Shown here: in pieces, positions 40,121 through 46,165 of the stretch
Numbering within the stretch: the first letter of the stretch is position 1
Layout: each line of letters opens with the position of its first letter
DNA from: an uncultured delta proteobacterium
GTDB taxonomy: Bacteria > Desulfobacterota > Binatia > UBA9968
Assembly (NCBI GenBank): GCA_963727625.1
Contig: CAVSHR010000004.1
Span: forward strand, 448,001 to 512,000
DNA: 64,000 bases
Direction: 5' to 3'
Translations under genes and position numbers: made by a program
Notes under the pieces: generated by a model
The model's database searches: none
What the model was told of the DNA's origin: nothing
The model's input: the letters and a program-made list of their open reading frames with translations, nothing else

Positions 40121-41551
40121 TCAATCAATGCCCGCCAGTTCCTTGGCCAGACGAACGAACGGGCTCAGATCATAGGCGCTTACGAGCCGCTGTTTGTTGG
40201 TGGCCAGGCTGGCGACGTTGTACATCTCAAACAGGAGCTGGCGCGAGCCGAACGAATCGCAGGCGTATTCCCACGCAAGTTTCAACATGCGAAACATTTC
40301 CTGCGTGCGCTCGTTCTCCCCGACAAAATAACGCCGGATTTGCTGACCGATCTCGGGGTTGTTCATGTCGGCCTGGCTCGGAGACATCAGGATGCCGGAG
40401 CCGCACAGCTCTCGTATCATCTGCAACATCTTGGGGTAGCCCTCGATCGAAAAGATGCGCGCAGCTTGCCCCGGCGTCCAATCGGGCAGGGTCAAGCCCG
40501 ATTGCGAGCGCACCGGGTTCATTTCGGCGGCATGGATGAATGCTCTCATCGTCTCCATGTAAACGATCGCGTCGGCCAGGGCTATTTGCACATGCGGTTG
40601 TTTCGAAGTGCCGAGATATTCGGCCATCGCGGCGCAGATCCCGAGCAGTACTTCTGCTTTGACCGCCAGCCGAACCAAAACATACCAGGGCCCAATGCCC
40701 ATCGCTCCCTGGAAGAGTCGCGCATAGAGACTCGGATCTGCGGGATGAGTTTGACGCAGATAGAACACGCGATCCCAGGGAATAAACACGTCGTCGAACA
40801 GCACCATCGCGTCCATCTCGTCCCAGTGCGGATTTAGCGGATGATCCTCGGGGTTTGGCGACGTCAGCGACTCCCGGCAGATGAGCTGGATGCCTTGGGT
40901 GTTTACCGGGACCGCGAAATACACCACCTCATCGGGCTGGAGGTTGGGTCTTGGCTGGGTCAGGCAAAGGATTTCATTGGCGTAGGGCGCCTGCGTTCCC
41001 ACTCCTTTGGCCCCTCGAACCACGATCCCGTCGGGCCGCCTCTCCACCACCCTCAAGTATTCCTGCTTGGCTTCCGGATGGCTTCGGTGATGAAACGGAT
41101 CGTTGAAAATAGTCGCGATGCTCAAATCGTTTTCGCGGCAATGCTCGAAGTAGCGCGTCACGTTCTCCGCGAAGCTCGGATTTTCTTCGCCGAAGACGTC
41201 GCGGCTGTCGTGCAACCCCAAAACCACCGTAGCCAGATGCTGCGGCAGACGTGCCGCCACCCCTCCGGCGCGGCGCACCAGGAACTCGTACATCTTGCGC
41301 TGCCGGATCAGATCTTCGATCGAATGGGGCAAAAGATAAGCGAGGCTTACCCGCTCGCCCGTCGCCGGTGAAATCATTGTCAGCAGCTCCTGATAGGCGG
41401 GATCATGCTGCAAGTCATAAACCGCGGCCACGCTGCGGGCGCAGCCCGCCAAACGGGGATGTTCGGTGACGTCCACCGATTCGCCCTGCAACCACACACG
41501 GCGCCCATCCCTCAGGCTATCGAGATATTGTTCTCCGCGACGTATCGGCAT
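40121..41551 (-). CDS. 4-hydroxyphenylacetate 3-hydroxylase-family flavin monooxygenase, oxygenase component
   Basis: GEQYLDSLRDGRRVWLQGE.VDVTEHP, GIVVRGAK..GT, DEMDAMVLFDDVFIPWDRVF, DSFGSRQLLFE. Confidence 0.9.
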   Translation of the reverse strand: MPIRRGEQYLDSLRDGRRVWLQGESVDVTEHPRLAGCARSVAAVYDLQHDPAYQELLTMISPATGERVSLAYLLPHSIEDLIRQRKMYEFLVRRAGGVAARLPQHLATVVLGLHDSRDVFGEENPSFAENVTRYFEHCRENDLSIATIFNDPFHHRSHPEAKQEYLRVVERRPDGIVVRGAKGVGTQAPYANEILCLTQPRPNLQPDEVVYFAVPVNTQGIQLICRESLTSPNPEDHPLNPHWDEMDAMVLFDDVFIPWDRVFYLRQTHPADPSLYARLFQGAMGIGPWYVLVRLAVKAEVLLGICAAMAEYLGTSKQPHVQIALADAIVYMETMRAFIHAAEMNPVRSQSGLTLPDWTPGQAARIFSIEGYPKMLQMIRELCGSGILMSPSQADMNNPEIGQQIRRYFVGENERTQEMFRMLKLAWEYACDSFGSRQLLFEMYNVASLATNKQRLVSAYDLSPFVRLAKELAGID

Positions 41552-41763
41552 TTACCCAGCTCTCAATAGAATTTTTGAGGTAATCAAACTCAACTCGACC
41601 GCCTTCGAGGCGAACCGTTCAGACTCGATCGAAACTATCCGATAACTTGACTCGAAACAATGTCAATTTGCGGGGAACGGAGTTGAGTTCGAAATGGCGC
41701 CCCTTGCACCAATGCGATGCCGGACTGGCGACTTGATGCCAGGCTAAAATAGGATACCAAGGA

Positions 41764-41823
41764 ACTTAACGCTCTGGTTCAGCGGCGGCGCGGAGTGCTA
41801 TCCGCTTCAACCGTTTGTTCGGC
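41764..41823 (-). mobile_element. attC: Integron attC recombination site (60 bp)
   Basis: Minus strand GCCGAAC-AAACG-GTTGAAGC-GGATAGCACTCCGCGCCGCC-GCTGAAC-CAGAGC-GTTAAGT, i.e. R''-5-L''-20-L'-6-R', with L'' one base longer than L'; begins 30 nt after the RT stop. Confidence 0.88.
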
Positions 41824-41853
41824 GGTTTTCCACTGACGTATCCTCGTCCTCGG

Positions 41854-43350
41854 TTAGTACATTGCTGCATTCTGCTTGAACAATTCCACTTCTTCTGGCT
41901 GAACCACTTCTGTCGCGTCCCCTGCATCAGCAATGACAATCTTGCGGCCATCTAAGGCTTTCTTGAGTGCCTCGCTTGCGATCCAGCTAGACTCCCAAAG
42001 CTGAGATGATGCCCCATTCACGACCTGACAAATAGGTTCGTTACTCTCGAACATGATGCCAACGGACTTAGGTTGCGTGACACGCTGGAGCCAAATTTCA
42101 AGGTAACCGTTGTACGGGACTCGCGCCATCTTTTCGCGTACTCTTGTCCACAAGCGCACCTTCTCTTCATTTGGCGCAAGTGAGATAAGATGGCTCAGAA
42201 TGCCGGCCACAGCCGGAAACGTCGAGGGTGAAACAAACGCAATATCTGTCGCAATCGCGACCTGTACGTCAAGGTCGTCGGGAGCTTCAGTCTGTTTTGA
42301 AATATTGGTGTGAAACTCACCAACCAACCTTCGCAAAGCTCCGCTATTTGGAAACCTCTGACCGAATAAATGCAGCCTTAAGAGCTGCTTTTGAATTGTC
42401 TTCGCGTTAGTTGTTCCGAGGTCTTGTAGCTCAATGCCGGCTAATTTATCTGGTTTGATCGATCCTTCCACTACGTTTCTGGAGGAAAATGTTTTTGATA
42501 CTCCGAGCCTCATCCCTACCGCTCGTAGCTTATCGCTGACTATCTTCAGGACCGCTTCGGCACGTTCGTCGCTATTTGCAAAAATTCTATAGTCGTCCCT
42601 ATATCGCAGTATCCGGATGTCAGTATTTCCCGCGAGAGCTAGGTTAATCTGCTCATCCACGTATCCAAGGACAATTTCCGCGATGAAGTCCATGAGGACC
42701 GATCCTTGCGCAATACCGTTGGTCTGGCCGAAACGACTAGCTTGGATATGGGAATCGATCTTGTTGCCGAGCAGAGCTTTATTCGTCTTTTCTTCCTTTG
42801 CTTTCGATAAGCCGTGCAACGCCCAAGCAATACTATGGGTGTACAGAGAGCCATAACAGTCGGTCACATCGGTATGGAAAACATGACTGAACTCCAGTGA
42901 ATAAGTCAGCGACCTTTGCTCAACGCTCTGCCACCAGCTTTTGATCTGAGTCGCAACATCCGTCTGGTGATCGACCGACATCACGGGCGCGCTGCAACAA
43001 TCAACTACACCGCCCGCAAATTCTTTGAGCCGCGCTCTTATGCTTTCCCAGTTCGCCTCCTCACAAATCACATTTACTAACGAGACGTAAATGGCCGGAT
43101 GTATCAACTCATAAGGCCGCCAGGCAAATTTTCCGTCCTTGTTTGCAATAAAGTTGTAGTTTACGTTCTGAAGTTCGTTGGGATTTGCGTTCTTAAACTC
43201 GGCATAGTTCCTGCCATTAAGAGCGGTTGAGACGTTATTCAGTATTGGTTCAAAACTGATGTAATTGGGCAGATCCCCGTTGAAGTAGCTGCTGCCCTTC
43301 AGAAAATGGCCTCTTGCCTCTTCGTTGGAAAGGTCAATCAATCGCTTCAT
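41854..43350 (-). CDS. Reverse transcriptase of the UG/Abi (defence-associated) class; DRT4/UG15-like is tentative
   Basis: NKDGKFAWRPYELIHP, HTDVTDCYGSLYTHSIAWA, GQTNGIAQGS..MDFIAE, RYRDDYRIF, helical C-terminal tail; visibly more AT-rich than its flanks. Confidence 0.88.
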   Translation of the reverse strand: MKRLIDLSNEEARGHFLKGSSYFNGDLPNYISFEPILNNVSTALNGRNYAEFKNANPNELQNVNYNFIANKDGKFAWRPYELIHPAIYVSLVNVICEEANWESIRARLKEFAGGVVDCCSAPVMSVDHQTDVATQIKSWWQSVEQRSLTYSLEFSHVFHTDVTDCYGSLYTHSIAWALHGLSKAKEEKTNKALLGNKIDSHIQASRFGQTNGIAQGSVLMDFIAEIVLGYVDEQINLALAGNTDIRILRYRDDYRIFANSDERAEAVLKIVSDKLRAVGMRLGVSKTFSSRNVVEGSIKPDKLAGIELQDLGTTNAKTIQKQLLRLHLFGQRFPNSGALRRLVGEFHTNISKQTEAPDDLDVQVAIATDIAFVSPSTFPAVAGILSHLISLAPNEEKVRLWTRVREKMARVPYNGYLEIWLQRVTQPKSVGIMFESNEPICQVVNGASSQLWESSWIASEALKKALDGRKIVIADAGDATEVVQPEEVELFKQNAAMY

Positions 43351-43516
43351 TTGGCCACAGACCTTTTCATGACGTCGACCTATCTAGTGAACTGCCGATT
43401 CGGTCCGCGGGTTATTATGGAAGCCATCCTCTGCGTCGAAGTCAGGAATCAGTTACAGGAATCAGCCTCAGATTTTTACGAATCGATTATCTAGTGATGT
43501 CTTCGGCGCCAATCTG

Positions 43517-43912
43517 TCACTTCCGAAAATCTTCTGCCCTCAACTCGATCGGCTTTCCATGCGGCGTTCGGTGCATGGCGCGCTCCCAGGCTCGGAAGTG
43601 TTCCGTGAGTGCCTGCTTTGAGGTCGCGCCTTTTTCCGCGACCATGCGTTCGAGCGTTGCGAGCCAGTGGTGGTAGTAGGTTTCGCCGGTGTCGGGATCG
43701 CCGGCGGCTTGGGCTTTTTTGATTTCTTCGCCAAGCATAGCGGACCACTCGGTCCAGGCGAACAATCCTTTTTCGTAGAGCGCCAGCCCCATTGCGAAGG
43801 CGTGAGCTTCCCAGGGCGCGCGAAAGACGGGACCGTTCTCGTCGCGCGGAATGCCCGGAACCGCGTCTGCCGCTTTGCGGGCGGCTTCGGGTTCAATCAA
43901 CTTTTCAGACAT
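43517..43912 (-). CDS. Nitrile hydratase accessory protein
   Basis: GPVFRAPWEAHAFAM, FAWTEW, YYHHWLATLE, RTPHGKPIEL. Confidence 0.92.
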   Translation of the reverse strand: MSEKLIEPEAARKAADAVPGIPRDENGPVFRAPWEAHAFAMGLALYEKGLFAWTEWSAMLGEEIKKAQAAGDPDTGETYYHHWLATLERMVAEKGATSKQALTEHFRAWERAMHRTPHGKPIELRAEDFRK

Positions 43913-44208: not shown

Positions 44209-44869
44209 TCAGGCATGTTCCAGATAAGGCTCAAACGCTTCAATGGAAACCTTCAATGTCGGCATCAGCGTCCGCGCCCCAAAGTTCCTGGGCATCGAAG
44301 CGCACGGTGTAAAGCCACTGGGGATCGTCGCCTTTGCCGGCCGCCACCGAGTCGGGAAAAGCGTGGGTGCCGTGCAGACGCTCGACAACGCCCACGTGGC
44401 CGCGTGCATAGCGCGGCAGGCGCGTGTGCGTCTTCGGGTGGATGTTCTTCGTGCGCACGCGATCATCGATTTTGAACTTGGCGGGTCCTTGGGCCGGCCG
44501 GTAAAACGAGCCCCGTTTGGTAACCTTTTCAATATCGGCCAATGCAAACGGGCCGCGGGCCAAATTCTTCGCCGGACGCAGCGCGTGCCCGGCTGCGACC
44601 TCGTCGGCGTCGATGAGACCGTGCTCGATGAGCAAGTTTTGATTGCGCAGGAACCACTTCTCGTAATATGAGCGCGTCAAATAGATCGACGGCGCTAACT
44701 TCTCGATGGTGTAGCGGCTGGTGTCGATGGTCCAGGCGCGGAAGACGCCGATGGCGCGGCTCATCGCCAGCACGCGCCCCTCCCAGCGATCATGAAAAAC
44801 CGGCTCGTTGGGCTTGGGCTCGACCTTGCCGAACCCGTCCATACCGCCCATATCGTGAACGCCGTCCAT
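44209..44869 (-). CDS. nthB: Nitrile hydratase beta subunit with an apparent +1 frameshift near the 3' end
   Basis: MDGVHDMGGMDGFG, HTRLPRYARG, QWLYTVRF..QELWG; the conserved tail TLKVSIEAFEPYLEHA* (stop 44209) is out of frame and the in-frame stop is at 44240. Confidence 0.9.
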
Positions 44870-45495
44870 CAGGCCACCTCGCTCGGTTTTTTCGCCAGGC
44901 CGGTGCCGACCATGGAGTCGCGCGTGACCAGCTTGGCGAGCTGCGTTTCACTCCAGCCTTCGGTTCCGGCCGGACGCATCGGCACGACCAGGTAGCGGGT
45001 CTCGGCCGTCGAATCCCAAACCCGAATTTCGGTCTCGGCCGGCAGCGTGACGCCGAAATCGGCCAATACCGAGCGCGGCTCCTTGACGACGCGCGACCGG
45101 TAAGCAAACGACTTGTACCAGGTCGGCGGCAGGCCGAGCACATCGGTTGGATAGCAGGAGCACAGAGTACACACGATCATGTTGTGCACCTGCGCCGTGT
45201 TCTCGACGGCGATCAGATGCTCGCCCACGTTGCCCACCTGGGGCGCGAGGCCGGCCACCGCCTTGCTCGCATCCTCGAGCAGCGCCGTGCGAAATCCAGA
45301 ATCGCTCCACGCCTTCGCCACCACCTGGGCGCCGATATGCGGGCCGATCTTGGTCTCGTAGAGCTCGACGATGCGGTCGAGCGCCGCCGTTTCGATATAA
45401 CCCTTCTCGACCAAAATGGTTTCGAGCGCGCGCACCCGCAAATCCATCTCGGTCAGATGGGAACCCTCATCATGATCGTGTTCGTGTGTCGCCAT
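44869..45495 (-). CDS. nthA: Cobalt-type nitrile hydratase alpha subunit
   Basis: VCTLCSCY (Co-type claw motif), GLPPTWYKS.AYRSR, VWDSTAETRYLV.P.RP; start at MATHEHDHD. Confidence 0.96.
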   Translation of the reverse strand: MATHEHDHDEGSHLTEMDLRVRALETILVEKGYIETAALDRIVELYETKIGPHIGAQVVAKAWSDSGFRTALLEDASKAVAGLAPQVGNVGEHLIAVENTAQVHNMIVCTLCSCYPTDVLGLPPTWYKSFAYRSRVVKEPRSVLADFGVTLPAETEIRVWDSTAETRYLVVPMRPAGTEGWSETQLAKLVTRDSMVGTGLAKKPSEVA

Positions 45496-45778
45496 AAGCG
45501 AAATATAGCCAAGGAAGCAGGCGGCATGCAATCGGAACCCGAGGGCAACATCAATGGTGATTGGATGCGCCTGCCTCGATAGCCAGTCGATTGACCGTGC
45601 AAGCTTGGCTAGCCCGTCGCGTTGATGAAAACTACCACCACTGGCGCCGTGAATCGAATTATTTCCCAACCAAACTTCTATGCCCGAAGCGGCGGGATGT
45701 CTCTGGGAATTGGCCGGGGTCATGCACCCGGCTTTCCCAATGCGGCGGTTCGTCTTGTTGGGTGCCAGGCGGTACGGT

Positions 45779-46165
45779 TTATTTTCCGACCGGCAACCAT
45801 CGGGCGGCTGCATCCGCACTATCCTCGGGCCGTGTATTGAACGCAATTGCCGCGCCCGGCGCAGCCTTGTGGACGGCATTGATGACCGCTTCGAATAATG
45901 CCAGGCGCCGGGGCGGCAGGCGGACGCCGGCTCCGATTACAACGCAATCATAAGTCTTCGCTGCTAATTGATGCTCCACTGTCGGTCCAGCGGTTTCATC
46001 GGGCCGGATGTAACCCACGTCCGCCTCCCATCCCCGTTCAGCGAATTGCTTCAGCGCAACCGCAATGCCGGCGCGAACCTTTTCCGCGGTCATTCCCGGC
46101 GGCAAAGCAGGGTCGGAAAAATCCACGGTCGCTGGATCGTAACCAACGAGCAAAATCCGCGTCAT
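45779..46165 (-). CDS. Conserved hypothetical protein
   Basis: 128-aa ORF with RBS GGAGG; YDCVVIGAGVRLPP..LFEAVINAVH..AP.AAIAFNTRP. Confidence 0.8.
   Translation of the reverse strand: MTRILLVGYDPATVDFSDPALPPGMTAEKVRAGIAVALKQFAERGWEADVGYIRPDETAGPTVEHQLAAKTYDCVVIGAGVRLPPRRLALFEAVINAVHKAAPGAAIAFNTRPEDSADAAARWLPVGK

Follow-up and report, generated by a model that had tools for sequence, protein, structure and literature searches.

How does a single reverse transcriptase (RT) gene, of the kind associated with phage defense, come to lie between a nitrile hydratase operon and an hpaB gene in the genome of an uncultured delta proteobacterium? The locus is part of a 64,000-nt stretch of DNA (the window: positions 448,001 to 512,000 of contig CAVSHR010000004.1, assembly GCA_963727625.1), numbered here from its first letter. 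The answer proposed here, which is considered quite probable, is that an AbiP2-family polymerase is the sole cargo of an integron gene cassette, placed between the two sets of host genes by an integron integrase. In its present state, the element is most likely a horizontally acquired, now trapped, solitary defense cassette, expressed by read-through. A first-pass annotation of the window, made by inspection, had arrived at a defense-type single-gene RT in a solitary cassette, horizontally acquired and off the integron platform; the attC site behind the gene, its restriction to one genome of the genus, and the cassette arrays around its homologs bear this out.

The gene encodes an intact RT-like protein of 498 aa. 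All of the motifs picked out at first pass are there (residue 160 for TDVTDCY, 212 for GIAQGS, and 250 for YRDD), and the G+C content of the gene, 0.46–0.50, is some 10 points below that of its flanks, 0.55–0.60. Pfam recognizes a generic RVT_1 domain alone (E 3e-11). Typing with the PADLOC profiles is far more specific: the AbiP2 profile (PDLC03744) matches with E 9.1e-193 and 639.5 bits, residues 1–495 corresponding to model positions 4–487 of 489, and is followed at a distance by RT_UG14 (8e-49), Drt6 (8e-45), and AbiK (7.6e-28). Among proteins of known structure, Escherichia coli Abi-P2 (7R08) is found by phmmer at E 2e-72, query residues 1–491 aligning with chain residues 32–540; this sequence alignment spans the RT-like palm and fingers and the C-terminal helical domain as well. 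AbiK (7R06) matches at E 2e-9, with similarity confined to residues ~151–290. The RTs of phages P2-EC30 and P2-EC58 are 29.8% identical to the window protein over its full length (E 1e-62 and 1e-61).

An affinity to DRT4/UG15, or possibly a new UG subtype, had been suggested earlier. There is some similarity of this kind: Drt4 models match the N-terminal two thirds of the protein (E 5.6e-39 to 2.9e-33, the best of them over residues 17–287 only), and UG15 structures match residues 78–288 (E 3.3e-10). These matches are partial, however, while that to AbiP2 is full length and better by about 150 orders of magnitude, and the 7R08 alignment includes the helical domain; DRT4/UG15 was rejected on these grounds, and such an enzyme, or a new subtype, must be rated very improbable. 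From profile and structure matches together, the window RT belongs to a divergent clade of the AbiP2 family, not to DRT4/UG15.

AbiP2 enzymes are relatives of RTs that act, each as a single gene, in abortive-infection defense; the E. coli member of known structure synthesizes untemplated DNA, with one of its own tyrosines as primer. Sections of Figiel et al. (2022, PMC9508834) describe Abi-P2 as a trimer that has a helical domain beside its RT-like one and is capable of DNA synthesis in vitro; its priming residue, Tyr61, is placed there in the fingers, on the loop between alpha2 and alpha3, and synthesis is reported to be lost in a Y61F mutant and kept in Y46F. In the alignment with 7R08, chain Tyr61 (LPAYINF) falls on Tyr30 of the window RT (LPNYISF), and the Y of YRDD pairs with chain Tyr282. 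Tyr30, D161, D252, and D253 do not vary in a set of 66 full-length sequences, made up of 65 homolog loci and the window RT itself; Y250 is found in 64. The RT is the only open reading frame (ORF) of the cassette, flanked by 29 nt on one side and 30 nt on the other; a search of 41400–43700 against Rfam at E<=1 returned no noncoding RNA match. The system is thus of the single-gene type, with no partner ORF, as had been supposed.

Thirty nucleotides past the stop codon is a 60-bp sequence which had been read by eye as an attC recombination site. Sixteen attC sites behind RT homologs in other genomes, with the window site excluded, were used to build a covariance model, R1; since RNAalifold gave no consensus structure for the attC alignment, the 16 pairs of the model (R box plus L box) were assigned by hand from counts of paired columns. 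Over the whole window, R1 has a single match at E<=10: it covers the full model at 41764–41823 (-), with 34.9 bits and E 6.5e-6, at just the place expected. With filters off, the runner-up between 41000 and 44500 scores 6.7 bits. Under an enforced pairing of AAC with GTT, the bottom strand takes up a fold of R box, bubble, L box with an asymmetric loop, and terminal stem (-8.2 kcal/mol, z -1.68); the corresponding z for the first attC of the genome's own integron array (see below) is -1.54. These two sites are also close in sequence: the R''-spacer-L'' segment (AACAAACGGTTGAAGC) differs at one base of 16, and AACAAACGGTT(C/G)AAGC is common to both. A generic scan for AAC...GTT hairpins by folding energy was dropped, having simply favored long G+C-rich stretches. 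By the model match and enforced fold, the window attC is a real site, of modest strength.

The ends of the cassette were placed by homology. Upstream of the gene, the sequence TYGRYGTYAT is found 27–30 nt before the RT start in 13 of the 77 homolog loci with enough upstream sequence, and the stricter [GA]TTYGRYGTYAT in 11 of these 13. In two cases (L039 and L028), the motif directly follows the R' of a preceding attC, and upstream of it close relatives have nothing in common. Most relatives begin G/TTCGGC, where the slash marks the crossover; others have G/TTCGAC. GTTCGGC is the exact complement of R'' GCCGAAC, which the nearest relatives share with the window, and complementarity of this kind is expected for a circularized cassette. 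The window's 5' junction is G/GTCGACGTCATGA at 43380/43379; that of one homolog (L057) is G/TTCGACGTCATG, so that just the first base after the crossover is unusual in the window. At the 3' end the junction is G/TTAAGT at 41770/41769. The spacer between stop codon and attC is 33–34 nt in seven homolog loci (L026, L028, L035, L039, L040, L056, L059).

Metagenomic sequences bear on the 3' boundary. Contigs 85–97% like the RT or its attC (short ones, from four runs of four studies) lose their likeness to the window at 41765–41768, inside R', and go on in four different ways beyond it. To judge from where their likeness stops, they show that this boundary is in use; they have no bearing on the window's own strain. 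None of the four runs has a contig over 41500–41721 or 43424–43497, and among sequencing runs, none of the listed ones being of RNA, the best share of the stretch was 0.15, with none reaching half.

The evidence that decides on the attC comes from homologs in other genomes. Of 158 RT relatives found, 80 loci were kept, with 62–90% protein identity; they are from Pseudomonadota, Nitrospirota, Chloroflexota, Planctomycetota, Acidobacteriota, Cyanobacteriota, and others. Many have obvious attC sites within 200 nt past the RT stop. Over 615 kb of these loci, R1 gave 42 matches at E<=0.1, every one of them on the RT strand. At 21 of the 80 loci an attC starts no more than 100 nt from the RT stop; 16 of these had been used in model building, and five (L027, L036, L037, L053, L062) had not. 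The figure is a lower bound: seven loci have less than 150 nt downstream, four matches end before the C-terminus, and R1 misses long attC sites that are plain by eye in L092 and L094. Whole cassette arrays surround some of the homologs (five matches at L039, four at L056, and three each at L027, L100, and L028), and an integrase above cut-off is found somewhere in the genome for three of these five. In a quick IQ-TREE phylogeny of the RTs, from which 15 partial or interrupted sequences were excluded, hosts from different phyla are interleaved; the window RT groups with L026, L036/L037, and L066 (SH-aLRT 98), and four of the five rows in this group have an attC. Two of its members, L036 and L037, have identical RT cassettes and flanks in metagenome bins labeled Planctomycetota and Nitrospirota, respectively; this points to double or mistaken binning of one contig, or else to a very recent transfer.

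Table 1. Features of the cassette and its surroundings; positions are those of the window.
Feature	Position	Strand	Basis or remark
Gene cassette, 1,610 bp	41770..43379	(-)	First base after 5' crossover to G of R', by homology
Cassette 5' leader GTCGACGTCATGAAAAGGTCTGTGGCCAA, 29 nt	43351..43379	(-)	By-eye alignment with L026, L027, L036, L039, L040, L043, L057
AbiP2-family reverse-transcriptase-like polymerase, 498 aa, intact	41854..43350	(-)	ORF with ATG start
Key residues of the RT: Tyr30; Asp161; Tyr250-Arg-Asp252-Asp253			Putative priming; motif A; motif C
3' spacer, stop codon to attC, 30 nt	41824..41853	(-)	Resembles nearest homologs
attC, 60 nt	41764..41823	(-)	Covariance model R1 and constrained fold
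attC R'' GCCGAAC	41823-41817	(-)	
attC spacer AAAC, between R'' and L''		(-)	
attC L'' GGTTGAAGC	41812-41804	(-)	
attC, 20 nt between L'' and L'		(-)	
attC L' GCTGAACC	41783-41776	(-)	
attC spacer AGAGC, between L' and R'		(-)	
attC R' GTTAAGT	41770-41764	(-)	Crossover expected 41770/41769
Noncoding spacer, 137 nt, accessory-gene stop to cassette	43380..43516	.	Single copy in genome
Nitrile hydratase accessory (beta-like) gene	43517..43912	(-)	NHase_beta_N 5e-11; last gene of operon
Nitrile hydratase beta gene	44240-44869		
Nitrile hydratase alpha gene	44869-45879	(-)	
HpaB-type 4-hydroxyphenylacetate 3-hydroxylase gene	40121..41551	(-)	Downstream of cassette

Where might the integrase have come from? 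The first-pass annotation reported no intI, attI, or second attC; this is true of the window, but not of the genome. An integron integrase gene (intI) was found at G000:C4:370957-371898 (TIGR02249, 467.8 bits, cut-off 265), on the same 1.65-Mb contig and ~118 kb from the RT cassette. About ten attC matches accompany it, at C4:361541-370035, on one strand and each behind an ORF; beside intI, R1 gives 53.4, 33.1, 21.3, and 19.3 bits plus weaker matches, again all on one strand. A whole-genome attC scan, in which 150 of 3,798 candidates were scored, yielded at least four matches. The ORFs of the array encode a SAM methyltransferase, a barstar-like protein, a RibD_C protein, an IS200-type transposase, and several proteins without a Pfam match. 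An integrase above cut-off is found in 9 of 31 genomes of the genus (8 of 30 without G005).

This complete chromosomal integron (G000:C4:361541-371898; L022, L021) lies outside the window. Its intI and attC sites are all on the (-) strand with the array 3' of intI, so that integrase and cassettes are co-oriented. A GTTCAAnnn repeat with a 9-bp period occurs around it in direct and inverted form (L021 1735-1775, 2216-2259, 2536-2584, 9346-9437), and the blocks beside intI flank a gene for a 23S_rRNA_IVP four-helix-bundle protein; also nearby (L021 2260-4423, 9439-10083) are ImuB-like (IMS), ImuA-like (RecA-fold), and LexA genes, and HigB/HTH and Gp49/HTH_37 toxin-antitoxin pairs. Two more attC matches, of 28.9 and 26.0 bits on the (+) strand, are at C4:790494-792442, likewise outside the window; next to them the integron integrase model gives a fragment-like match of 30 residues, and the pair may mark a second, degraded integron or attC cluster.

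The history of the site can be followed in relatives. As to vertical conservation at this locus, the RT was found in one of the 31 genomes of the genus, that of the window itself (G000); these include G005, and without it the RT is in none of the 29 others. The region upstream of hpaB, up to ~41675, is conserved host DNA common to relatives, and the intergenic region beyond it differs between them. One RT-less relative, G019, has 233 bp of intergenic sequence at the cassette site; the window, minus its 1,610-bp cassette, has 235 bp between the conserved blocks. From the nitrile hydratase stop to the crossover G, the window has 140 nt, as against 141 nt in G019. To the right, the flanks of the two are homologous (61 of 92 positions identical, z 4.26); the left 140 nt, in a global alignment, give z 1.27, with 62 of 500 shuffles scoring as high. 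The window, G019, and G014 are alike at ...GGAA(C/T)TTAAC and diverge just beyond, at the expected crossover point.

Other relatives have other sequences here. At the cassette site, G014 (L023, G014:C3:325300-327100) has a frameshifted luciferase-like monooxygenase gene in two frames, and G021 (L024, G021:C27:18200-21500) has an Xre-RES toxin-antitoxin pair and two ORFs of 220 and 128 aa, neither of them matched by Pfam; R1 found no attC in either insert. The variable site upstream of hpaB in G018 (L008) has a GTTCAAnnn repeat with a 9-bp period, of the same type as beside intI.

Several observations weigh against insertion of the cassette by an integrase, or against the function ascribed to it. 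At the orthologous place, RT-less G019 has a weak attC match (19.7 bits, E 0.027) ending GTTAAGT, and an attC site at this locus may therefore be older than the RT. The earlier proposal of insertion at a secondary site stands insofar as the cassette is off its platform; given the weak G019 match at the same position, the site may, but need not, have been a secondary one. It could instead be that the RT cassette entered a resident solo attC by attC x attC recombination, the spacer at 43380–43516 being what is left of the resident site. This would be a variant of the explanation favored here, with another target and the same kind of element. Besides the G019 site and its GTTAAGT end, the nearly equal lengths of the two intergenic regions and the variability of the locus (toxin-antitoxin genes in G021, a monooxygenase gene in G014) are in its favor. 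Scored as an attC, however, the window spacer reaches at most 3.5 bits (R1, filters off); it is not convincingly like the left part of the G019 region, as seen above, and set against the G019 attC region itself it gives z 0.1 (the RT attC gives z 2.0, with 17 of 300 shuffles as high). Furthermore, an attC match was found at one of nine relatives' hpaB loci searched, and the G019 genome, 91% complete, yielded no integron integrase. The spacer may be a decayed resident recombination site, and exchange is a tentative possibility, on balance somewhat doubtful.

Other contrary points concern the attC and the cassette ends. No second attC or attI was found next to the cassette in the window (R1; with filters off, no upstream score exceeds 3.5 bits), and for want of any further attC match there, the cassette was classed as solitary and not as a member of an array. 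Folded freely and alone, the attC does no better than shuffled sequence (z -0.5 and -0.08). Constrained-fold z for 20 curated homolog attC sites runs from +0.57 to -6.92, with the window site toward the weak end; this, and two nonstandard pairs in its L box, are reasons to think that it may be decaying. The 5' core, GGTCGAC, is one base off the GTTCGGC or GTTCGAC of relatives. The poor free folding, together with the similar stretch at the same place in G019 and the distance to the integrase, could also suggest a host regulatory palindrome or a chance resemblance, the RT having arrived by homologous recombination or with an unseen element. This is highly unlikely: the only R1 match in 64 kb agrees with prediction in both place and strand, the R''/L'/R' order and a similar 3' spacer recur behind the closest RT homologs in other phyla, and likeness to relatives stops at both of the expected cassette boundaries.

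There are also contrary points on the side of the RT family and its function. R1 finds no attC immediately after the gene at 59 of the 80 homolog loci, and none accompanies the ten RTs of one clade (from Rhizobiales, Paracoccaceae, and others, mostly Alphaproteobacteria); the RT family is therefore not always cassette-borne. The window RT is only ~30% identical to the Abi-P2 that has been studied, and its catalysis, expression, and protection against phage are predictions. The search for promoters and terminators described next was a simple consensus scan.

Pfam context confirms the position given at first pass, between the nitrile hydratase operon and the HpaB-like gene; the two host gene sets are co-directional with the RT. 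The scan found no promoter-like site on the (-) strand in the 29-nt leader (43351–43516 being the interval searched), and no terminator-like site on the (-) strand over 43351–43516. With no promoter in the leader and no terminator after the nitrile hydratase accessory gene, transcription of the cassette most likely starts in the nitrile hydratase operon and reaches it by read-through. No other copy of the 137-nt spacer between the two was found in the genome or in the homolog and relative loci examined. Within it are two exact direct copies of the 10-nt sequence TATCTAGTGA, 107 nt apart at 43381–43390 and 43488–43497, and a tandem pair of CAGGAATCAG at 43443–43465. Farther upstream, the nitrile hydratase alpha ORF is predicted to encode 336 aa, of which only residues 144–326 are matched by Pfam; either it has a long N-terminal extension or its start was called too early.

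In the reading preferred here, an integron integrase, which may have been the genome's own, would have inserted the whole 1,610-bp cassette (29-nt leader, ORF, 30-nt spacer, and attC), the target being a degenerate attC already resident there or else a secondary site of the GTT kind. Having no partner site on its 5' side, and with its 5' core mutated, the cassette is probably now trapped and no longer excisable. Without a promoter of its own, it would most likely depend on read-through from the nitrile hydratase operon. If the protein behaves as its family is described in parts of PMC9508834, it would form trimers or hexamers; Tyr30 would prime untemplated DNA synthesis, and phage infection would lead to abortive infection.

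Alternatively, the cassette may be carried along silently or in decay, trapped, unexpressed, and of no defensive use to its host. The absence of its own promoter, the weak attC, and the mutated 5' core are consistent with this, as is its presence in only one genome of the genus. Its 498-codon frame is nevertheless open and of the same length as in relatives, all of the catalytic and priming residues checked have been kept, and it follows the upstream operon in the same direction with no predicted terminator between them. On this evidence a silent passenger is unlikely, if less so than the palindrome or the DRT4/UG15 alternative.

The closest known system is Abi-P2 of E. coli P2-like prophages (P2-EC30 and P2-EC58; 7R08). 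It is of the same family, is a single gene, and has the priming tyrosine and YRDD in common with the window RT, but the two are only ~30% identical; Abi-P2 is reportedly found in a variable region of P2 prophages, while the window RT is on a chromosomal integron cassette. A second difference is that Tyr46 of the E. coli protein is His in the window RT; in the parts of the Abi-P2 work cited above, Y46F is still active. AbiK of Lactococcus lactis, a protein-primed untemplated DNA polymerase, is in the same class of Abi polymerases and is matched in its palm, but its helical domain is unlike, and its own priming residue, Tyr44, is at a nonequivalent position according to sections of PMC9508834. 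DRT4/UG15 enzymes are also single-gene RTs of the UG/Abi class with partial similarity, but the match to them is much weaker.

As for its carrier, a solitary attC, or a cluster of them, with no integrase nearby corresponds to the IntegronFinder 2 terms SALIN and CALIN. The locus resembles these in that the 64-kb window has a single attC with its cassette and no integrase; it differs in that both an integrase and the main array lie 118 kb away on its contig.

Integron cassettes that carry phage defense have been described (Darracq et al., 2025; Kieffer et al., 2025; Getz et al., 2025). The window cassette resembles them in being a defense gene made up of an ORF plus attC, and in that its host genome has a chromosomal integron full of cassettes with no assigned function. 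As far as the portions of these studies available to us extend, however, their emphasis is on small systems, Vibrio arrays, and mobile integrons; the window cassette is a 1.6-kb RT outside any array, with relatives in many phyla. The terms "reverse transcriptase," "DRT," and "retron" are absent from the main texts, as accessible, of the Darracq preprint and of a 2026 cassette-recovery preprint, although supplementary lists may differ. In the literature searched, no link between AbiP2 or Abi-P2 and integrons was found, nor, among the titles listed, any on a phage-related RT on an integron cassette. AbiP2 polymerases, and the carriage of phage defense by integron cassettes, are thus already known; the connection between the two is modestly novel.

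By itself, the window gene would be an ordinary member of known families. What the locus adds is to join AbiP2 polymerases with integron carriage, as a large RT-type defense gene in the form of a cassette whose exact ends can be given. Its divergent clade, with ~30% identity and the priming tyrosine kept, offers a second subject for the question of how untemplated, protein-linked DNA causes abortive infection. Closely related cassettes in very different bacteria are, moreover, a natural experiment on the spread of one defense gene by integrons. A broader proposal, put forward tentatively and with rather less than even confidence, is that this AbiP2-type clade circulates in at least half a dozen phyla as a 1.6-kb cassette with conserved leader and attC, and that within the genus the site between hpaB and the nitrile hydratase genes may, through a resident attC, also be an off-platform docking site for cassettes and for small defense or toxin-antitoxin modules. 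If the multi-phylum AbiP2 cassette is real, integrons would be a main vehicle for RT-based defense.

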